Sequence record: MZ726792.1
Reading direction: 5' to 3' (one strand)
Origin: Escherichia phage vB_EcoM_ASO1B
Length of the DNA stretch: 64,000 nucleotides
Positions 11,368-38,885 of the stretch are shown in pieces (within the stretch, counting starts at the first letter, position 1; each line of letters starts with the position of its first letter). The position numbers were made by a program, and so were the translations under genes. A model generated the notes under the pieces. It had not been told where the DNA came from and searched no databases. It worked only from the letters and a program-made list of their open reading frames with translations.

Positions 11368-11571
11368 ATGGCTATTATTAATGGTTTAACCATTGAAACT
11401 ACACACATCAAAGATATCAAAGTTGGTGATATAGTCCTTTCCCACGGCGTAGAAAAAACTGTCACTGCAAAGGATATCAAAGAGGATTCTTTCATGGGTA
11501 GGACTCTCTTCGGTGATTCTTATTGCTTAGGCTATCTTGCAGTTTTAAAAGTTGTCAAAAATAACAAATAA
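11368..11571 (+). CDS. hypothetical small protein
   Basis: 67-aa ORF after PeSL cassette. Confidence 0.5.
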   Translation: MAIINGLTIETTHIKDIKVGDIVLSHGVEKTVTAKDIKEDSFMGRTLFGDSYCLGYLAVLKVVKNNK

Positions 11572-11657
11572 AGTACTTTACAAGGGGCTTAAAAGTTGAT
11601 AACTTAAGCCTCAGATAAAGAGCTTTACTACTAAATCCTAAACTGGAGATTCTAAAA
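11571..11657 (+). promoter_or_regulatory. type-II intergenic cassette
   Basis: hairpin GGGGCTTAA...TTAAGCCTC 11584-11612. Confidence 0.6.
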
Positions 11658-11906
11658 ATGATGAACTACTTTAACATTCCCGATACCTGTAGATTATTGA
11701 CACAAGAAGAAAATTTGGGTAAACCTTTCATTTACCACATGCCAGATAACACGGCAAAAACTTATAGTTACAATGTTAACCGTTTCACCGCATACGCTGC
11801 AAAGAACGGCTATAGGTTGGTTACTCAAAAAGTAATGCTGGTTACAACTGCTGGCGAGATTCCTACAGTTGCAGTCAAACTAGTTTTCTCAAAGAAAGTT
11901 AAATAA
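11658..11906 (+). CDS. hypothetical protein
   Basis: 82-aa ORF. Confidence 0.5.
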   Translation: MMNYFNIPDTCRLLTQEENLGKPFIYHMPDNTAKTYSYNVNRFTAYAAKNGYRLVTQKVMLVTTAGEIPTVAVKLVFSKKVK

Positions 11907-11991
11907 AGCACTTTACAAGGGGCTTATAGTTCGATAAAGTAAGCCCCAGATAAAGAGCTTTACTACTCAATCCTAAACTGGAGATTCAAAA
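11907..11991 (+). promoter_or_regulatory. type-II intergenic cassette
   Basis: hairpin 11929-11947 region; SD before ATG 11992. Confidence 0.6.
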
Positions 11992-12534
11992 ATGAAATGT
12001 TATCACGGAACTACTCAAGAAAATTTCCTCAACCTGATTAATAACGGTGATAAACCATCAGGCGCATGGAATTGTTCGGATATGGACGGCAATTTTTACG
12101 TGTATCCAGAAAATAAAATCTATGGCGACGATGATGAAGAGATAACATCGGAGGGCATTCAGCAAGCTCTAGGGAACGCCACTATTACGGCGGCCTTCCA
12201 GATGAAAACCCAAAATATTGTTATCTTAGAACTCGATATTCCAGATGATGAGCTAAATGATGATTATTCTTGTGATAATATGTCGAGTGTAGCAAGTTTT
12301 ACAGAGTACTTTGATGTAAACTGGATTAAAAAGGTCTATACAACAGAGTTTAACGCTATGTATTCGCCTTTTTGTCTTCCTTCACTGGATAACCCAAATA
12401 TGAACTATCTTGATGAGACATTAGAACTACTTGCTAAAAGTGTTCAACAGTCGGACAGTATTCAGGTTTTTTGTGACATCATAGATACACTGACAGGAAA
12501 CATTGCAGAAGAGGATTTAAAGAGCTTTTTCTAA
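11992..12534 (+). CDS. hypothetical acidic protein
   Basis: 180-aa ORF. Confidence 0.55.
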   Translation: MKCYHGTTQENFLNLINNGDKPSGAWNCSDMDGNFYVYPENKIYGDDDEEITSEGIQQALGNATITAAFQMKTQNIVILELDIPDDELNDDYSCDNMSSVASFTEYFDVNWIKKVYTTEFNAMYSPFCLPSLDNPNMNYLDETLELLAKSVQQSDSIQVFCDIIDTLTGNIAEEDLKSFF

Positions 12535-20114: not shown

Positions 20115-20400
20115 CGTTAAACTCTCTGACGAAGAAATAGTTGACTTTGTTATTACCTACCATAAGGTCAAAGCAGGTATTTTCAAAAGGTTTGTTATAG
20201 GCATCATATGAAACGTATGTATCAGCTACTTGCTTAGTGCTTAACTTCTTACTTGATGGGTTTAAGAGGCCACCATACAGCTTCTTGATAGCCTCTTCTA
20301 CAACAGACCAGATAATTTCGTCAGTAATTTCTTCGTACAGGTCAAGTTCACGCTCTAGTGAGAAGTCACAAATAGGGAAAACAACCTGTACTTTACTCAT
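20107..20400 (-). CDS. hypothetical protein
   Basis: 97-aa ORF. Confidence 0.5.
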   Translation of the reverse strand: MSKVQVVFPICDFSLERELDLYEEITDEIIWSVVEEAIKKLYGGLLNPSSKKLSTKQVADTYVSYDAYNKPFENTCFDLMVGNNKVNYFFVREFNDE

Positions 20401-20789
20401 TAACGAATAACCTGTGAGACTTGAATTGCTTCAGTTACAGACAAATCACCAACTTTCTCTTCTTTGATAAAAGTGAATGTGAGTTCAACAGGCTCTTGCT
20501 CTTCTTGCTCAACTGGAATGCCATTAAGCTCATCGCGGATTGATTGAGTTGTCCAGTCTTCTCCACCATCTGGATAATGGATGGCGTAAAGAGGAAACTC
20601 CATGTCATACCAGCCAAATACAGGGCAACCATCTGCATCATCTCGCATTCTGCGAAGGGTGCTACCTGAGCCTGTAAAGCGAAGACTAATATTTCCATTA
20701 CACTCAAAAATCACTGCGTCAGCAAGTCCAGCATCTTCTCGACCATCATGGCCAAAGGTGTCAACTTTTACTTGAATCTCTTTATTCAT
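20400..20789 (-). CDS. hypothetical protein
   Basis: 129-aa ORF. Confidence 0.5.
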   Translation of the reverse strand: MNKEIQVKVDTFGHDGREDAGLADAVIFECNGNISLRFTGSGSTLRRMRDDADGCPVFGWYDMEFPLYAIHYPDGGEDWTTQSIRDELNGIPVEQEEQEPVELTFTFIKEEKVGDLSVTEAIQVSQVIR

Positions 20790-21180
20790 AAAAACCTCTC
20801 TCTGCTTGTTCTATTTTTGCTCTTAAAGCTTCGCAATGTTGTAAATGATAGTTAGCTTCTTGTTCATGTGTTGCTAACTGCCTTTCCAGAGCAGTTTTAT
20901 AATAACTTGCGAGTTGCTCTTTTGTCAATGGGTGCTCTGAAATAATATCAAGTCCACTTTCACCAAGAGGGTTGAATTGTCCATGTTCGTTGACATTGTA
21001 AGTCTCAAACTTAAACAGGCCATTGTTCACAGACTCAATAGGTGACAGCTCAACAAGCTCTACAGTAAACCGTGTATATACCTTGTCACCTCTTGAAACC
21101 ACATTGTTCCCGACAATGCGTACAAGCGAGCCATTACGAGTGTACTTAAAAGTTCCAAAGTCACTAGCCCAAAGTTTCAT
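20782..21180 (-). CDS. hypothetical protein
   Basis: 132-aa ORF. Confidence 0.5.
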   Translation of the reverse strand: MKLWASDFGTFKYTRNGSLVRIVGNNVVSRGDKVYTRFTVELVELSPIESVNNGLFKFETYNVNEHGQFNPLGESGLDIISEHPLTKEQLASYYKTALERQLATHEQEANYHLQHCEALRAKIEQAERGFYE

Positions 21181-21195: not shown

Positions 21196-21222
21196 AAATA
21201 AAAAAGGCTCCCGAAGGAGCCT
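21196..21222 (-). terminator. rho-independent terminator downstream of endolysin gene
   Basis: minus-strand GGCTCC-TTCG-GGAGCC hairpin followed by T-run. Confidence 0.65.
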
Positions 21223-21231
21223 ATGAAGATA

Positions 21232-21696
21232 TTACTTTGGATATACACTGTCAAGATAAATGTTAGCTTCCATTCTACGTCTGTTTTTCAGTCCGTTTGA
21301 AGTAACCTTCTCACCTTTGACTGTAATCTTGTTCCACCACTGCATAGCTTCTGCACAACCTACCTTATTACCAGCATTGTGGCGCTTGATAAATGTAGAG
21401 TCCTGCATAGCTGTGATACCGATGTTGTATGTTTCACTTACAAGTGCGTCGAACTCATTCTGAGAAGTGGGAACCTTGATAGCTTTGTTCACTGCTGCAA
21501 CAAACTTTTCAACATCTGTGAGAAGATACTGTTCAGCTTGTGCAGCCGTGATTTTCATACCCATCTTAACAGGTTTTCCGTCAATACGGATTGTACCATA
21601 CCCGATTGTTGGGATTCCGGCAGAATCTTTGTAAGCCTCTAACTTCAGACCTTCAAAGAACTTAATGGCTTCTAAGCCTTTTCTTGAGAGTTGCAT
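21232..21696 (-). CDS. endolysin, T4-lysozyme-like muramidase (GH24)
   Basis: 154 aa; EGLKLEAYKDSAGIPTIGYGT matches the catalytic block of phage lysozymes (Glu, Asp, Thr triad region). Confidence 0.8.
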   Translation of the reverse strand: MQLSRKGLEAIKFFEGLKLEAYKDSAGIPTIGYGTIRIDGKPVKMGMKITAAQAEQYLLTDVEKFVAAVNKAIKVPTSQNEFDALVSETYNIGITAMQDSTFIKRHNAGNKVGCAEAMQWWNKITVKGEKVTSNGLKNRRRMEANIYLDSVYPK

Positions 21697-22829
21697 TATA
21701 CCTCCCCTGCTGGGTTAACTGTGACTGTTGCTGCATTAGATGTTACAGAACCACCTGCACCAGTAACTACACAGGTGTAGCTTCCTGAATCAGTAGCGGT
21801 TGCACCTTCTTTGGTGTAAGTTGCAGTAGTTGCATCGAGGATGTCTTCCTCACCTTTCTTCCACTGATAACCTGTCGCACCTGTTGCCACAACATTCAGT
21901 GTTAAGGTCTCACCTTCAGTGATTTCTTGATTGGTTGGTTGCTGAGTGATTACCGGAAGTGCATTCACAGTTACTACAGCAGCATTAGATTCCACTGCAC
22001 CACCTGCACCTGTTACAACGCAAGTGTATGAACCAGCATCTGCTGGCAGCGCACCAGACTTGCTATAGGTAGCCTCTGTAGCCGAAGGAATGTCAGAGCC
22101 ATCTTTCTTCCACTGGTAACCCGTTGCACCCGTTGCAGTCACTTCCAAGCTGATGTTTCCACCCTCATTGATGGTCTGGCTAGAAGGTTGCTGTGTAATC
22201 ACAGGCAGTGCGTTGACAGTAACTGTTGCCGCATCTGAGGTAACACTTGTACCAGCCTCTCCAGACACAACACAAGTATAAGAACCAGCATCAGAAGGTG
22301 CTACAGACTGTTTTGTGTAAGTTGCAGAATTGGCACTAGGGATATCCTCACCATCCTTCTTCCACTGATATCCAGTGGCGTTAGTTGCTAGAATGCTTAG
22401 AGTAAGTGTGCCACCCTCATTGACTGTTTGACCTGTTGGTTGCTGAGTAATTGCTGGTGGCTTAATAGCATCCTTCAACTTAGCATTCAACATTGAGAAC
22501 GGCTTAACTCTTGCCAACCATTCGCAGTAAATTGTGTCAACATCTTTACCATTGATGATTGCATACTGCAAATCCATGAAGAAATCAGCAGTTCTCATCT
22601 GTGCACCAACACTGTAAAGGAGTTCATCACTAAAAGGAACTTTGTAGTCTGGTTTGTAATCAAACTTCTCAACTTCTGCAATATCAGCTTCAGGCCAATA
22701 TGAACTATAGGTAAGTGGTAAAATAGCCTCTTGATATGTTCTAAAATCATATCTCTTACCAGCCTTTACATTTGCAACGAAACCTTTTACAAATTCTTTG
22801 AAGTCTGGGTAAGTCTTTGCTTTAATCAT
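21696..22829 (-). CDS. Ig-like repeat protein (Hoc-like surface/decoration candidate)
   Basis: 377 aa; three tandem ~90-aa repeats (ITQQP...GYQWKKDG...GSYTCVV...TVTVN) typical of Ig-like domains; N-terminal domain paralogous to next gene. Confidence 0.5.
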   Translation of the reverse strand: MIKAKTYPDFKEFVKGFVANVKAGKRYDFRTYQEAILPLTYSSYWPEADIAEVEKFDYKPDYKVPFSDELLYSVGAQMRTADFFMDLQYAIINGKDVDTIYCEWLARVKPFSMLNAKLKDAIKPPAITQQPTGQTVNEGGTLTLSILATNATGYQWKKDGEDIPSANSATYTKQSVAPSDAGSYTCVVSGEAGTSVTSDAATVTVNALPVITQQPSSQTINEGGNISLEVTATGATGYQWKKDGSDIPSATEATYSKSGALPADAGSYTCVVTGAGGAVESNAAVVTVNALPVITQQPTNQEITEGETLTLNVVATGATGYQWKKGEEDILDATTATYTKEGATATDSGSYTCVVTGAGGSVTSNAATVTVNPAGEV

Positions 22830-23197
22830 TTCTTTTTAGCCTCTAAACGTGCGTTTAATCTAAAATAGCCTTTATGTTGTGGAGACACATCACTAACAAC
22901 AATACCTTCAACTTTATAGCCCTTACCAATTACATACTGGATATCCATAAGAAACGTACCAAGCCCAACAATGTGGAACATTGGGTATAGTAACTTATCT
23001 GAATCTGGGAGTTTAATTTCTGGTTTATAGGTAGGTTGTTCGGCAGTTGGTGTAATATCTTCTTCAGGCCATTTGCTAAGTCTCCATGTTAAAGGTGATG
23101 CAATAACATCGTTAAGATTATATCTCTCACCTTTCTCCACGGAATTAATATAGGATTGTAGGAAGCAATAAAAGTCTTTTGCACTCTTAGCCTTCAT
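22826..23197 (-). CDS. paralog of N-terminal domain of the Ig-repeat protein
   Basis: 123 aa; shares SYWPE/KWPEED, YKP, FLMDIQYVI-like blocks with 21696-22829 N-terminus. Confidence 0.5.
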   Translation of the reverse strand: MKAKSAKDFYCFLQSYINSVEKGERYNLNDVIASPLTWRLSKWPEEDITPTAEQPTYKPEIKLPDSDKLLYPMFHIVGLGTFLMDIQYVIGKGYKVEGIVVSDVSPQHKGYFRLNARLEAKKK

Positions 23198-23244
23198 TAA
23201 ATATCCTTATAAATAGATAAAGGGGCATTAGCCCCTGTTTATAC

Positions 23245-24062: not shown

Positions 24063-24454
24063 AGATAATCCTCTTGTCTTCTGTAATTTTGAAAGAACAG
24101 GTACAGACCAATTTCAGAGGATGAATAGTAGAGTAACTCTACCCTTTTTGATTCCTTACAGTGATTGGTATTTTTACCTTTCTTCGGGTTATTTGATTTT
24201 CTCATTAAGTCTCCTTTGTAGAACAAGGCAGACCTACAGCTTTAAGTAAGATGGTACAGTAATCCATACAACAAGTCAAGAACTATTGCAAGTTAAAAAA
24301 GTTGTTGACAAAGTACTTGACAAGGTGTAGGCTTATAAATACTTAGAAGATAACTTAAAAGGTTCCTCTAAAAAGGCTATTTAAACAGATATCTTTCTGG
24401 ATATCTATCTTTTATCTTAAAAGCCTTTTAAGAGGTCTTATAAGAGGCATACCA

Positions 24455-24826
24455 ATGAAAAACAGAACAAACAAAGGCCAGTTTAAAAAAGGCCAATCTG
24501 GAAACCCATCTGGAAGACCAAAAGGCTCTCGCAACAAAAGCTCACTTGTAAAAGCTCAACTGACCATTGATAATTCTGCTGAGTTTGCTGCAAAGTTGTT
24601 TGAGGCGATTGTTACAAGGGACGCTGCTAAGCTTGCAGAGTTCGGGTTAAACACAGATGATGTAACCATCAAGAGTATGATTGAGGTCGGTAAAACTATC
24701 TTTACTCACTCAGCAGGTGAGATGAAAGCACTTGCAGCAGACACTAAGAAGACTCCTGATAATGGTGGTCAACCACAGACAGATAACAAACCAACGTTCT
24801 CTGCTGTAGCGACTCTTAAAAAATAA
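24455..24826 (+). CDS. hypothetical protein with basic N-terminus (GNPSGRPKGSRNK)
   Basis: 123-aa ORF. Confidence 0.5.
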   Translation: MKNRTNKGQFKKGQSGNPSGRPKGSRNKSSLVKAQLTIDNSAEFAAKLFEAIVTRDAAKLAEFGLNTDDVTIKSMIEVGKTIFTHSAGEMKALAADTKKTPDNGGQPQTDNKPTFSAVATLKK

Positions 24827-24907
24827 TTTTAAAAGGTGTTGACAGACTCTATAAAGTTGCTCTAAAGTCTGTCACATCAAACAACAAATGAGAGAAGAGA
24901 GTAAAAT

Positions 24908-26323
24908 ATGAGCGAATTATTTAAACATGCGCACCTTCATGCAGGTCGAACTGAAAATGGTGCTGTAAACCATACTTCATCAATGTCTGCTCTTGTAGAC
25001 TTTTACAAAGCTGCTGGTTCTAGCCGTAGCAATGTAGAAATCTTACCAGACTTGTTCTACAAAGCTTTGCATGAGGATGTTGATGTTGCAGTTCGTATTT
25101 TACTGCATATGCGAGATGTACGAGAAGGTATGGGTGAGCGTAAAGCTTTCCGAACTGTTTTACTTCAAGCGATTGAAGATAAAGTTTTAGAGCCTACGCA
25201 GGTTCTTCGCATTATGGATAAGATTGCAGAGCTTGGTCGCTTTGATGACTTCAAAATCTTTGTAGGTACTCGTTTCGAGACAGATGCCTTCAAACATTTA
25301 GAAGCAGCTTTACTAGACCCTGCAACAGCAGGTTTAGCAGCTAAGTGGTTACCACGAGTAAAACCACGTCACAAACAGTTTGTAAAACGTTTCTGCAAGT
25401 TTGCAAACTTGAGTGAGAAAGAGTATCGCACACTGTTGTCTGCACTATCTGATACAGTTGAGCAAAAAATCTCTGCTAATGAGTTTGGTAAGATTGACTA
25501 CAGTAAGATTCCTTCACTTGCTGCTGCACGTTACCAAAAACTGTTTAACCGTAAAGATGGAGAACGCTACAAAGCTTACATCGAGTCATTATCAAAGGGT
25601 GAGACTAAGATTAATGCTGGTGCTGTTTACCCATACGATGTGATTAAATCTGTTAAGTATGGTAATGCAGATGTTGCTAATGAGCAGTGGAAAGCACTAC
25701 CAAACTGGATGGCAGAAGGTGAAAACATCTTGTGTATGACTGATGTTTCAAGCTCAATGTCTTGGGTGAATTTTGGTTCAATCACTGCACTTGATATTGG
25801 TGTATCACTTGCCTTGTATGTAGCAGAACGCAATACAGGTTGCTTTAAGAACGAGTTAATGGTTTATTCAACAAACCCTCATTTCATCGAACTGAGTGGT
25901 GATTTACGAAACCGTCATCGTCAGGTGATGCGACACGTTGAATATGGCTCAACTAACTTACAAGCAGCCTTTGACCGCATTCTTGAGACAGGTAAAAGAA
26001 ATAACTTGACTCAGAAAGATATGCCAAGTAAGCTTATCATCTTCTCCGATATGGAGTTCAATCAGGTTGATGGAGCTAACGGTCGTACAAACTTTGAAGC
26101 AATTCAGAGTAAGTACAAAAAAGCTGGATATGAGATGCCACAACTGGTATTCTGGTACTTAGCAAACCGTAATGGCACTTGCGAAGTGTCTGTTAAGGAT
26201 AACGGTGTAGCAATGGTATCTGGTTTTTCTCCAGCTACTTTAAAAGCTCTGCTTGGTGGTGAGAAGTTTGACCCAATCAGCGTAATGCTCAAAGCAGTAA
26301 TGATTGACCGTTATATCTGGTAA
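24908..26323 (+). CDS. vWA-domain protein with MIDAS motif; N-terminal helical domain possibly TROVE/Ro60-like
   Basis: 471 aa; DVSSSMS (DxSxS MIDAS) near residue 280 followed by vWA-like C-terminus; N-terminal TENGAV...LVDFY block; positioned immediately 5' of tRNA array. Confidence 0.45.
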   Translation: MSELFKHAHLHAGRTENGAVNHTSSMSALVDFYKAAGSSRSNVEILPDLFYKALHEDVDVAVRILLHMRDVREGMGERKAFRTVLLQAIEDKVLEPTQVLRIMDKIAELGRFDDFKIFVGTRFETDAFKHLEAALLDPATAGLAAKWLPRVKPRHKQFVKRFCKFANLSEKEYRTLLSALSDTVEQKISANEFGKIDYSKIPSLAAARYQKLFNRKDGERYKAYIESLSKGETKINAGAVYPYDVIKSVKYGNADVANEQWKALPNWMAEGENILCMTDVSSSMSWVNFGSITALDIGVSLALYVAERNTGCFKNELMVYSTNPHFIELSGDLRNRHRQVMRHVEYGSTNLQAAFDRILETGKRNNLTQKDMPSKLIIFSDMEFNQVDGANGRTNFEAIQSKYKKAGYEMPQLVFWYLANRNGTCEVSVKDNGVAMVSGFSPATLKALLGGEKFDPISVMLKAVMIDRYIW

Positions 26324-26488: not shown

Positions 26489-26565
26489 CTCTGTTTAGCT
26501 CAGCTTGGTAGAGCGTTCCGTTTGGGGCGGTAAGGCCGGAGGTTCAAGTCCTCCAACAGAGACCA
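26489..26565 (+). tRNA. tRNA-Pro (anticodon TGG)
   Basis: 7-bp acceptor CTCTGTT/AACAGAG, T-arm GGAGG-TTCAAGT-CCTCC, anticodon loop TTTGGGG, encoded CCA. Confidence 0.7.
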
Positions 26566-26572
26566 AATTAAT

Positions 26573-26650
26573 GTTCCAGTAGACAAAATGGTAAAGTCAC
26601 CACTCTTTCAAAGTGGATATCTGAGGGTTCAAATCCCTTCTGGAACGCCA
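26573..26650 (+). tRNA. tRNA-Glu (anticodon TTC)
   Basis: acceptor GTTCCAG/CTGGAAC, anticodon stem CCACT/AGTGG loop CTTTCAA, T-loop TTCAAAT, CCA. Confidence 0.7.
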
Positions 26651-26657
26651 GTTTTGA

Positions 26658-26729
26658 CAGAAGACCAATTACAGCAAACTTAATCTACTCATCTGACACG
26701 AAATCGGACAAAGAAGATATTTGGTCTGG
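26658..26729 (+). ncRNA. stem-closed module 1 (5' CAGAAGACCAA ... TTGGTCTGG 3')
   Basis: conserved 5' motif CAGAAGACC-N4-ACAGCAA and complementary 3' GGTCTGG; between tRNAs. Confidence 0.35.
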
Positions 26730-26740
26730 TCATTGAGAAT

Positions 26741-26817
26741 TGCGGGTATAGAGAAAGGGCGTCTCACATGTCTCATTAGCATGGTATCGGCAGGTTCGAC
26801 TCCTGCACCCGCCTCCA
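26741..26817 (+). tRNA. tRNA with CAT anticodon (Met or Ile2), U1-C72 mismatch
   Basis: acceptor TGCGGGT/ACCCGCC, D-stem GAGA/TCTC, anticodon stem CATGT/GCATG loop CTCATTA, T-arm GCAGG-TTCGACT-CCTGC, CCA. Confidence 0.55.
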
Positions 26818-26823
26818 ATTTTG

Positions 26824-26883
26824 CAGAAGACCGTATTCAGCAACAAAATACTTTTTGCGGATAAAAGAAAAAACACGGTCTGG
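26824..26883 (+). ncRNA. stem-closed module 2 (CAGAAGACCGT ... ACGGTCTGG)
   Basis: same terminal motifs as module 1 with compensatory change in closing stem. Confidence 0.35.
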
Positions 26884-26894
26884 CAATGTATTAA

Positions 26895-26971
26895 GGTTAG
26901 GAAGCACATAAGGTATGTGCGGTCGCCTGTTAAGCGAATGGCACAGGGTTCGAATCCCTGACTAACCGCCA
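26895..26971 (+). tRNA. tRNA-Asn (anticodon GTT)
   Basis: acceptor GGTTAGG/ACTAACC, anticodon loop CTGTTAA, T-arm CAGGG-TTCGAAT-CCCTG, CCA. Confidence 0.7.
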
Positions 26972-26980
26972 AATTTAAAT

Positions 26981-27068
26981 GTGTCGTTATCCCGTAGATG
27001 GTAGCGGTGGGGACTGTAAATCCCTTGTCATTGAGACTCGGTAGGTTCGACTCCTACACGGCACACCA
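26981..27068 (+). tRNA. tRNA-Tyr (anticodon GTA), long variable arm
   Basis: acceptor GTGTCGT/ACGGCAC, anticodon stem GGGGA/TCCCT loop CTGTAAA, 88 nt, CCA. Confidence 0.7.
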
Positions 27069-27073
27069 ATAAA

Positions 27074-27151
27074 GGTTATGTAGTTTAATTTGGTTAAAAT
27101 ACTCCCCTGTCACGGGAGATGATGAGGGTTCAAATCCCTTCGTAACCGCCA
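27074..27151 (+). tRNA. tRNA-Asp (anticodon GTC)
   Basis: acceptor GGTTATG/CGTAACC, anticodon stem CTCCC/GGGAG loop CTGTCAC, CCA. Confidence 0.7.
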
Positions 27152-27213
27152 ATTTTGAGAGGGCTATTTAGCCCCTCCCTTAAAGGGTTCTTACGAGTAT
27201 CCTTTAAAGGAGC

Positions 27214-27285
27214 AGAAGACCAAATACAGCAAGAACGTATGAAATTTCAAGCCAATTTAATTTTGAAAATTTAAACTTGGTCTGG
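27214..27285 (+). ncRNA. stem-closed module 3 (CAGAAGACCAA ... TTGGTCTGG)
   Basis: same conserved termini; internal AT-rich palindrome. Confidence 0.35.
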
Positions 27286-27298
27286 CTCAACAAATTTA

Positions 27299-37781: not shown

Positions 37782-38885
37782 ATGTTGACTAATTCTGAAA
37801 AAAGCAGATTTTTCCTTGCTGACCTGACTGGTGAAGTCCAGTCTATCCCAAATACTTATGGGTATATTTCCAACTTAGGTCTGTTCCGTTCAGCACCAAT
37901 CACCCAAACTACTTTCCTTATGGACTTGACTGATTGGGATGTTAGCTTGCTTGATGCGGTAGACCGTGATAGCCGTAAAGCAGAGACTAGCGCACCTGAG
38001 CGTGTTCGTCAAATCAGCTTCCCAATGATGTACTTCAAAGAAGTTGAAAGCATCACTCCTGATGAAATTCAGGGTGTACGTCAGCCAGGCACTGCAAACG
38101 AACTGACTACTGAAGCTGTAGTACGTGCTAAGAAGCTGATGAAGATTCGTACCAAGTTCGATATTACTCGTGAGTTCCTGTTTATGCAAGCTCTGAAGGG
38201 TAAAGTTGTTGATGCTCGTGGTACGCTGTATGCTGACCTGTACAAGCAGTTCGACGTTGAGAAGAAGACTGTTCACTTCGACCTTGACAACCCTAATGCT
38301 GACATCGACGCTTCTATTGAAGAACTGCGTATGCACATGGAAGACGAAGCTAAGACTGGCACTGTAATCAACGGTGAAGAAATTCACGTAGTTGTTGACC
38401 GTGTATTCTTCAGCAAACTGGTTAAGCATCCTAAGATTCGTGACGCTTATCTTGCACAGCAGACTCCGCTGGCTTGGCAACAGATTACTGGTTCTCTGAG
38501 AACTGGTGGTACTGACGGCGTTCAGGCTCACATGAACACCTTCTACTACGGTGGTGTTAAGTTTGTCCAGTACAACGGTAAGTTCAAAGACAAGCGTGGT
38601 AAGGTTCATACTCTGGTGAGCATTGATGGTGCTGGTGCAGAGGTTGGTGTAGGACACGCTTTCCCTAACGTTTCTATGCTTGGTGAAGCAAACAACATCT
38701 TCGAAGTGGCTTATGGTCCATGTCCTAAGATGGGTTACGCAAATACACTTGGTCAGGAACTGTACGTATTCGAATATGAAAAAGACCGTGACGAAGGTAT
38801 TGACTTCGAAGCTCACTCTTACATGCTGCCATACTGTACTCGTCCTCAGTTGCTGGTAGATGTTCGTGCTGACGCTAAAGACTAA
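37782..38885 (+). CDS. major capsid protein (by synteny and codon bias)
   Basis: 367 aa following protease/decoration genes; strong SD; highly-expressed-like codon usage (CGT, CTG, GGT). Confidence 0.6.
   Translation: MLTNSEKSRFFLADLTGEVQSIPNTYGYISNLGLFRSAPITQTTFLMDLTDWDVSLLDAVDRDSRKAETSAPERVRQISFPMMYFKEVESITPDEIQGVRQPGTANELTTEAVVRAKKLMKIRTKFDITREFLFMQALKGKVVDARGTLYADLYKQFDVEKKTVHFDLDNPNADIDASIEELRMHMEDEAKTGTVINGEEIHVVVDRVFFSKLVKHPKIRDAYLAQQTPLAWQQITGSLRTGGTDGVQAHMNTFYYGGVKFVQYNGKFKDKRGKVHTLVSIDGAGAEVGVGHAFPNVSMLGEANNIFEVAYGPCPKMGYANTLGQELYVFEYEKDRDEGIDFEAHSYMLPYCTRPQLLVDVRADAKD

Follow-up and report, generated by a model that had tools for sequence, protein, structure and literature searches.

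The 64,000-nucleotide stretch of Escherichia phage vB_EcoM_ASO1B (sequence record MZ726792.1; hereafter the window) is from a Felixounavirus, and it raises the question of what a protein with three immunoglobulin-like (Ig) repeats is doing in a leftwards-transcribed block beside the endolysin gene, and why a second, shorter gene next to it codes for a relative of its N-terminal domain only. The first-pass annotation, made from the sequence alone, had likened these products to accessory capsid or tail decoration proteins.

The three genes are arranged in the order short paralog (22826-23197, 123 aa, phrog_4463), Ig-repeat gene (21696-22829, phrog_3995) and endolysin (a GH24 lysozyme; 21232-21696; Pfam Phage_lysozyme, E 8e-41), all on the minus strand, and the endolysin gene, which the first-pass annotation had noted as a neighbour, lies directly downstream of the Ig-repeat gene. 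A terminator-like hairpin is located immediately upstream of the block (23221-23236, minus strand) and another closes it after the endolysin (21205-21222, minus strand); both are annotated as terminators in related records, the upstream one in those of XTG1, wV8 and AYO145A. The XTG1 GenBank record leaves the paralog and the Ig-repeat gene unannotated. The genes are compactly organized, with a 1-nt overlap between the stop codon of the Ig-repeat gene and the endolysin start (TAATG), and a stop/start overlap, ATGA, read directly at 22826-22829 (minus strand) between the paralog and the Ig-repeat gene, with a GAGG Shine-Dalgarno sequence 11 nt upstream. This ATGA and GAGG arrangement, which suggests that the two genes are translationally coupled, is kept in wV8, AYO145A, Felix O1, Sf14, Mordin, Bas63 and the distant contig L008, and the identical three-gene order is also found on a contig where the copies are only 46-57% identical.

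Three further candidate features of this region were set aside. The sequence CTATTTATAAG upstream of the block was considered as a late promoter, but matches occur 38 times in the window against 36.6 expected, with no enrichment; a -1 frameshift fusing the paralog to the Ig-repeat protein at AAAAAG before the overlap would use a site that is not conserved in wV8, Sf14, Mordin or L008; and a neighbourhood like T4 hoc-inh was hinted at by a faint Pfam Phage_Inh_N match to the upstream 185-196-aa gene, which was not reproduced with four homologs at E up to 10.

Some 15 kb separate the block from the gene for the major capsid protein (37782-38885, plus strand; phmmer against 9NCF_A, E 9e-246), with 25 tRNA genes between them. 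The position outside the structural module, to which the first-pass annotation drew attention, is thus real and had been noted before for Bas63, where the gene is 'more than 10 kb' outside; the endolysin-adjacent position is ancestral for the Ounavirinae.

The 377-aa product of the Ig-repeat gene consists of a ~120-residue N-terminal domain followed by three I-set Ig repeats, confirming the domain arrangement first described. The N-terminal part corresponds, by residue-by-residue alignment, to the solved capsid-binding domain (CapBD) of PDB chains 9NCF_S and 9C2D_S, and spans residues 1-122 (22464-22829, minus strand), with the codons for Arg79 and Arg107 at 22593-22595 and 22509-22511, respectively. 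The repeats occupy residues 123-207 (22209-22463; Pfam Ig_3, residues 124-189, E 5e-33), 208-290 (21960-22208; I-set, residues 209-285, E 1e-25) and 291-373 (21711-21959; Ig_2, residues 292-371, E 7e-26), all on the minus strand. As proteins they are pairwise 66-69% identical (repeat 1 is 66-67% identical to repeats 2 and 3), but Tandem Repeats Finder detects no tandem array in the DNA of the Ig units, and the repeats have therefore diverged in nucleotide sequence.

The relatives with solved structures indicate what the protein does. In phmmer searches of the PDB it aligns from residue 1 with Hex-Dec of Bas63 (Escherichia phage JohannRWettstein; 9NCF_S, E 2.5e-286) and with Sf14 gp20 (9C2D_S, E 3.9e-169), and these matches identify it as the hexamer decoration protein of Felixounavirus, orthologous to both. 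In cryo-EM structures of the T=9 capsids, Hex-Dec and gp20 monomers plug the centres of the 60 pentamer-adjacent hexamers and leave the 20 hexamers on the true 3-fold axes empty (PMC12609058, PMC11821841). Salt bridges are formed in Sf14 between gp20 Arg79 and Arg107 and Asp221 of the capsid protein (PMC11821841); both arginines are present in the window protein, and Asp221 is kept in its capsid protein (codon 38442-38444, plus strand; conserved against 9NCF_A by phmmer). Mass spectrometry has detected Felix O1 gp36 in purified virions (44% coverage) and Sf14 gp20 in virions (PMC11821841). On three hosts Bas63 can do without g124, which it needs more on S17-1 (PhageMaP preprint).

Many GenBank, UniRef and PHROG records name the Ig protein a 'tail protein' or 'major tail protein', but this label derives from the similarity of its Ig domains to tail proteins of other phages, and the orthologs sit on capsid hexamers in two independent cryo-EM structures, as capsid chains of 9NCF and 9C2D. 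A tail location is thus barely credible, and the many records that carry the label are in error. The earlier suggestion of an accessory capsid or tail decoration protein accordingly stands for the capsid and falls for the tail; the solved capsid-bound orthologs, the virion mass spectrometry and the conserved Arg79, Arg107 and Asp221 together show the capsid-decoration reading to be right. Orthologs are found in Felix O1 and Sf14 virions, and the N-terminal domain is capsid-binding and no enzyme, contrary to the outcome under which that suggestion would have been dropped. We find no evidence that contradicts the Hex-Dec assignment.

From the near-identity to its orthologs, we infer that the Hex-Dec of this phage is located at the centres of the facet-edge hexamers. 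In the T=9 head, each of the 60 hexamers next to a pentamer (facet-edge, quasi-3-fold) would hold one monomer in its central depression, the ~120-residue CapBD being anchored through the Arg79 and Arg107 salt bridges to Asp221 of three capsid-protein subunits, and the three acidic I-set Ig domains would form a flexible fibre pointing away from the head. If T4 Hoc is a guide, the fibre probably aids adherence to surfaces or host cells, and capsid integrity would be independent of it. The Hex-Dec gene is the middle one of a late-expressed three-gene block with overlapping stop and start codons.

The short paralog is more puzzling. It was proposed at the outset to match the N-terminal domain alone, and this is borne out: the 123-aa protein aligns end-to-end with Hex-Dec residues 2-119 (BLASTP, 36% identity, E 9e-19) and with residues 3-119 of 9NCF_S (phmmer, E 7e-14). 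It ends 3-4 residues past the CapBD, has no Ig display domains, and no Pfam domains are found in it. Equivalents are Felix O1 ORF37, Sf14 gp021, Bas63 gp125 and VpaE1 ORF40c. An AlphaFold2 model from a 12-sequence alignment reaches a pLDDT of 59 and gives meaningless Foldseek matches; with seven divergent members added the pLDDT is 76, and the model matches 9C2D_S and 9NCF_S with TM scores of 0.73 and 0.72 (probability 1.00). The paralog is thus predicted to share the CapBD fold. The two solved CapBDs are the only Foldseek matches in the PDB and Ounavirinae proteins the only ones in BFVD, and no match to another family is found in Pfam, the PDB or BFVD. In a whole-library HMM search, no more than 12 representatives of clusters at 50% identity are recovered; the family is therefore small, with no wider context to mine. 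Two simpler clues to the role of the paralog do not hold up: its basic charge (pI 8.9 here) is not a signature, as the family pI spans 5.2 to 9.1, and a holin or membrane role is opposed by the lack of a hydrophobic segment (maximum Kyte-Doolittle 19-residue window 1.34).

In a tree, the short copies form one clade and the Hex-Dec copies another, each with 100% bootstrap. The paralog is an ancient tandem duplicate of the CapBD alone. Might it be a functionless, decaying remnant of that duplication? In ~20 of 252 phage genomes (~8%) the gene is absent, survives as a 190-bp remnant or has been joined to Hex-Dec, as decay would have it, and SP3_SHan-2021 has a natural chimera of paralog lobe 1 with lobe 2 and the Ig part of Hex-Dec. 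An intact ORF of 122-124 aa is nevertheless present in ~232 of the 252 and also in a lineage that is only 46% identical, and its dN/dS of 0.07-0.2 (at dS up to 1.5) is close to that of the endolysin. The protein also has an invariant motif of its own, and its transcript is detected in Felix O1, where the ORF36 and ORF37 transcripts both peak late (RT-PCR). Decay is thus very improbable, and the paralog is evidently a real gene under purifying selection. We regard it as probable that the best overall explanation of the locus is a Hex-Dec gene accompanied by an ancient CapBD duplicate.

The replaced residues bear on whether the paralog also binds capsids. The position of Arg79 is Gly (Gly78) and that of Arg107 is Gln or His in all short paralogs, and the Arg79 loop of Hex-Dec is substituted by the invariant paralog-specific motif PMFHIVGLG, which is the most conserved part of the protein. 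As Arg79 is not universal in the distant single-copy CapBD proteins, its loss alone does not exclude capsid binding. The published virion data are negative, if not decisive: neither the Felix O1 virion list (cut at 25% coverage) nor that of VpaE1 includes the paralog, and a mass-spectrometry entry for gp021 was not found in the Sf14 supplement, the VpaE1 and Sf14 tables being possibly incomplete for detected proteins. Bas63 and Sf14 both carry the paralog gene, yet no additional density on their hexamers is described from the cryo-EM maps, in which icosahedral averaging would blur any monomer located on a true 3-fold axis. Neither cryo-EM paper mentions the paralog, and its role is undescribed in the literature that could be searched; for essentiality, the PhageMaP preprint text treats Bas63 g124 and not g125, and two further essentiality preprints do not include this genus.

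One reading of these data is a 'bald plug', in which the paralog is a fibre-less capsid ligand, either filling the 20 true-3-fold hexamers or competing for the 60 Hex-Dec sites and so tuning fibre density. Its predicted CapBD fold, its expression late alongside the structural genes, its probable co-translation with Hex-Dec and the 20 hexamers that Hex-Dec leaves unoccupied all fit, and in the lineage of P0059 the sole CapBD protein has no Ig domain, so that Ig-less CapBD proteins can stand alone. Both arginine anchors are replaced, however, the Felix O1 and VpaE1 virion proteomes do not list the protein, and paralog-encoding Bas63 and Sf14 have no reported density on other hexamers; we consider this reading unlikely.

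Alternatively, the paralog could have been re-purposed to a non-capsid target, a host or phage protein, possibly linked to the neighbouring lysis genes. That the former capsid-contact loop, with its altered chemistry, is the most conserved part of the protein agrees with this, as do its absence from the virion data and the block it shares with the endolysin. But it has neither a transmembrane segment nor a match to another family in Pfam, the PDB or BFVD, its tight and conserved coupling is to Hex-Dec, and the CapBD gene of phage phiEa21-4 adjoins the endolysin where there is no short paralog, so the lysis neighbourhood is older than, or independent of, the paralog. Re-purposing seems distinctly improbable.

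The reading we tentatively prefer, at somewhat short of an even chance, is that the paralog is no stable stoichiometric virion component but an accessory made together with Hex-Dec, transient in head maturation and dispensable in the laboratory. It would act transiently on Hex-Dec or on the capsid hexamers while the head matures. It is also conceivable, if doubtful, that the paralog is a functional partner controlling decoration, as a fibre-less plug, a competitor or placeholder that sets fibre number, or a chaperone preventing Hex-Dec from binding to procapsids before they expand. If so, it would to our knowledge be without precedent, as no Hoc-type decoration protein is known to have a dedicated regulator or a paralogous partner.

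Both the decoration role of Hex-Dec and its position outside the structural module are already published, so the main feature re-finds a decoration protein whose capsid-bound structure appeared in 2025, while correcting the 'tail protein' name that is widespread in databases. What value remains is in the short paralog: a CapBD that is conserved, under selection and apparently co-translated with Hex-Dec, and that has no display module, makes an easy experimental handle. It could reveal what directs Hoc-type decoration to some hexamers and not to others, and whether the density of decoration is under control, which would be useful for engineering phage display on Felix O1-like heads.

Several known systems share parts of this arrangement. 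The single-copy proteins phiEa21-4 gp38 and P0057-P0061 have a homologous CapBD and are likewise encoded upstream of the endolysin, but what they display is a Big_2-like domain, a single Ig domain or a Lys-rich tail, and a second, Ig-less copy is lacking. T5 pb10 has one Ig domain compared to three in the window protein, and the alignments in the PDB matches to it (5LXK and 8ZVI) are limited to the Ig region (query residues 131-207); the binding domains are thus not detectably related. T4 Hoc resembles Hex-Dec in being a non-essential monomer at the hexamer centre, with a projecting string of Ig-like domains and an acidic surface, and the two proteins work alike. Its CapBD, however, is C-terminal, smaller and topologically unrelated, whereas the binding domain of the window protein is N-terminal, and the Hex-Dec binding-domain fold has been described as topologically distinct from that of Hoc (PMC12609058). 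The 'Hoc-like' PHROG matches are confined to residues 120-370, the Ig region, and outside the Ig domains T4 Hoc has no sequence similarity to the window protein. We know of no Ig-less Hoc paralog in T4. The closest systems are Bas63, where the Hex-Dec CapBD is at least 97% identical to that in the window and the capsid protein ~99% identical, and Sf14, where the gp20 CapBD is ~89% identical. In both, as in the window, the domain has Arg79 and Arg107 as anchors and is followed by I-set Ig repeats, the capsid protein is shared, and paralog, Hex-Dec and endolysin genes are neighbours; the only difference is in the number of Ig repeats, with three in the window and Sf14, four in Bas63, and two in Felix O1 and Mordin.

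The region at 21000–24000 matches Enterobacteria phage XTG1 (KT184316; a Felixounavirus of the Ounavirinae) at 100% identity and some 200 further Felix O1-like phages at 93–94%. It contains three leftwards-transcribed genes bounded by terminator-like hairpins at 23221–23236 and 21205–21222: a short gene (22826–23197, minus strand, 123 aa), an Ig gene (21696–22829, minus strand, 377 aa) and, directly downstream, a GH24 endolysin gene (21232–21696, minus strand). The short gene overlaps the Ig gene at ATGA and the Ig gene overlaps the endolysin gene at TAATG, with a Shine-Dalgarno sequence for each downstream gene. The structural module (terminase, portal, capsid protein and tail genes) occupies the opposite strand from roughly 32 kb on, with the major capsid protein gene at 37782–38885, and is separated from the block by 25 tRNA genes. 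The first-pass annotation had described an N-terminal domain with three tandem Ig-like repeats, a neighboring paralog of the N-terminal domain only, and a leftward block with the endolysin away from the structural genes, and this description is confirmed in every respect.

We note that the XTG1 record leaves four clear open reading frames without annotation (20400–21180 and 21696–23197), including both genes studied here, although these are annotated in sister genomes; in the wV8, AYO145A and Felix O1 records the Ig gene is 'hypothetical' or 'tail protein', and the short gene is a 'hypothetical protein'. A DUF5681 gene and a gene for a 471-aa DUF2828/TROVE-like 'RNA-binding protein' (24455–26323) diverge from the block directly ahead of the tRNA array (26489–31640), a synteny also seen in two distant lineages, L015 and L019. 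The sequence CTATTTATAAG (23206–23216, minus strand) lies directly past the terminator and ahead of the short gene, and GTATTTATAAG (24332–24342, minus strand) heads the leftward transcription unit; their motif is not enriched across the window as a whole, and it was rejected as a late promoter for the block on that ground.

The Ig protein is already known and structurally solved. Pfam identifies Ig-type stretches at residues 124–189, 209–285 and 292–371 (Ig_3, E 5e-33; I-set, E 1e-25) and has no match to residues 1–120 or to the short protein. The three repeats are 66–69% identical to each other, but have diverged enough at the DNA level that Tandem Repeats Finder reports none. In the PDB the sequence matches chain S of 9NCF (phage Bas63, entered as 'Immunoglobulin-like domain protein'; E 2.5e-286) and chain S of 9C2D (Shigella phage Sf14, entered as 'tail protein'; E 3.9e-169), both from icosahedral capsid reconstructions. 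The Bas63 ortholog, named Hex-Dec, is bound only at the facet-edge hexamers, its Ig domains reach outward and are unresolved in the map, its gene lies over 10 kb away from the structural module, and members of the genus carry one to four Ig copies (PMC12609058). In Sf14 there is one gp20 per asymmetric unit, the protein is detected in virions by mass spectrometry, and its Arg79 and Arg107 form salt bridges with Asp221 of three capsid-protein subunits (PMC11821841). Both arginines are kept in the window protein, as is Asp221 in the window capsid protein, which shares about 99% identity with its Bas63 counterpart. The Felix O1 ortholog, gp36 (ORF36), was found at 44% coverage in CsCl-purified virions and labelled a tail protein at the time. 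With the solved orthologs, the conserved contact residues and the Felix O1 virion detection, the proposal of an accessory capsid or tail decoration protein is correct for the capsid, where it is already in the literature, and fails for the tail. A Bas63 knockout screen showed that the same gene (g124) is not needed on three E. coli hosts and matters more on strain S17-1.

The full length of the short protein aligns to residues 2–119 of the Ig protein (36% identity, E 9e-19), the capsid-binding domain (CapBD) of Hex-Dec. It has its own PHROG of unknown function (phrog_4463), with equivalents in Felix O1 (ORF37), Sf14 (gp021), Bas63 (gp125) and VpaE1 (ORF40c), and the two cryo-EM papers make no mention of it or of any paralog (PMC12609058, PMC11821841). 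It is predicted to be a complete CapBD without the display module, given a sequence match to the 9NCF_S CapBD (residues 3–119, E 7e-14) and an AlphaFold2 model (19-sequence alignment; pLDDT 76, pTM 0.74) whose Foldseek matches are limited to 9C2D_S (TM 0.73) and 9NCF_S (TM 0.72) in the PDB and to Ounavirinae proteins in BFVD. The fold belongs to a very small family: a family profile run with HMMER against all 1.84 billion representatives retrieved 12 clusters. Intact short genes (at least 60% identity) are present in about 232 of 252 phage genomes carrying Hex-Dec.

The short gene is ancient and under selection. Its dN/dS is 0.07–0.2 (Nei-Gojobori, unsaturated comparisons; XTG1 and wV8 give dN 0.064, dS 0.71, ratio 0.09), similar to the endolysin (0.08–0.15), and contradicts a functionless relic, which we consider extremely improbable; the protein evolves two to three times faster than the Hex-Dec CapBD. 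Short copies and Hex-Dec CapBDs form separate clades in a neighbor-joining tree, each with 100% bootstrap. The same gene order recurs on an 87-kb metagenomic contig from a divergent lineage (L008), where the short protein (122 aa) is 46% identical, the Ig gene encodes 298 aa with a CapBD 57% identical, and a lysozyme gene follows; this Ounavirinae-like contig also has a Gad1-like (anti-Gabija) gene a few kb downstream (11510–12369). The two genes are coupled, the stop/start overlap and a GAGG Shine-Dalgarno sequence being kept in all these phages compared, and RT-PCR in Felix O1 grouped ORF36 and ORF37 as 'late' genes alongside those for portal, sheath, tube and fibre. More distantly, only one CapBD gene is present in phiEa21-4 and in three metagenomic lineages, at the same site upstream of the endolysin and fused to a Big_2-like domain, one Ig domain or a Lys-rich tail; the endolysin-adjacent position is therefore ancestral, and the duplication is derived and has long persisted in the Felixounavirus/Mooglevirus/L008 group. 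In a distant relative the sole CapBD protein (P0059, L015:5001–5462), just upstream of the lysozyme, has a Lys-rich disordered tail and no Ig domain.

The short paralog is naturally dispensable. Tf, fKMPT1, REP6, REP8 and SP116 have Hex-Dec without an intact short gene, as determined by reading the upstream sequence in the first two and by tblastn in the others; Tf and fKMPT1 retain a non-coding remnant of about 190 bp upstream of Hex-Dec (2306–2497 in both L005 and L006) that includes AAAGACTTTTATTGCT. In Salmonella phage SP3_SHan-2021 (L004:2501–3379) one gene replaces two, an in-frame chimera of the first ~50 paralog residues and the rest of Hex-Dec, joined at a WPE(E/A)DI motif common to both. 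Salmonella phage ST11 (L014:2869–3750) has an intact short gene and a Hex-Dec gene broken into three short reading frames, by either pseudogenisation or sequencing error. Felix O1-like DNA with this locus is also present in GU169904 ('Staphylococcus phage SA1', 143190–143558), probably a mixed or mis-assembled record.

The short paralog has lost the arginine anchor, with Arg79 replaced by Gly and Arg107 by Gln or His in every copy, and the counterpart of the Arg79 loop is an invariant, chemically different motif, LLYPMFHIVGLGTFLMDIQYV, its most conserved stretch. A re-purposed protein with a non-capsid target is one reading of these changes, albeit an unlikely one. Neither the Felix O1 virion protein list nor the set of 22 VpaE1 virion proteins includes the paralog, and for Bas63 and Sf14, which both encode it, no density is reported on hexamers beyond those occupied by Hex-Dec (PMC12609058, PMC11821841). 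This negative evidence is weak, because coverage cut-offs were applied to the proteome lists and symmetry averaging would smear a monomer sitting on a true 3-fold axis. A fibre-less plug on the remaining hexamers, or a protein competing with Hex-Dec for its sites, is also doubtful, though somewhat less so than a non-capsid role. Our inference is that the paralog forms no stable part of the virion, and we tentatively favor an assembly-time accessory that would work with Hex-Dec or on capsid hexamers. Other candidates were rejected: a paralog–Hex-Dec frameshift fusion (the slippery site is not conserved), a charge signature (pI varies across the family), a membrane role (no hydrophobic segment) and an Inh-like neighboring gene (the Pfam hint was not reproduced).

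The Ig protein resembles T4 Hoc and T5 pb10 in function alone, with matches confined to the Ig region, and the binding domain of Hoc is C-terminal and topologically different from the Hex-Dec CapBD (PMC12609058).
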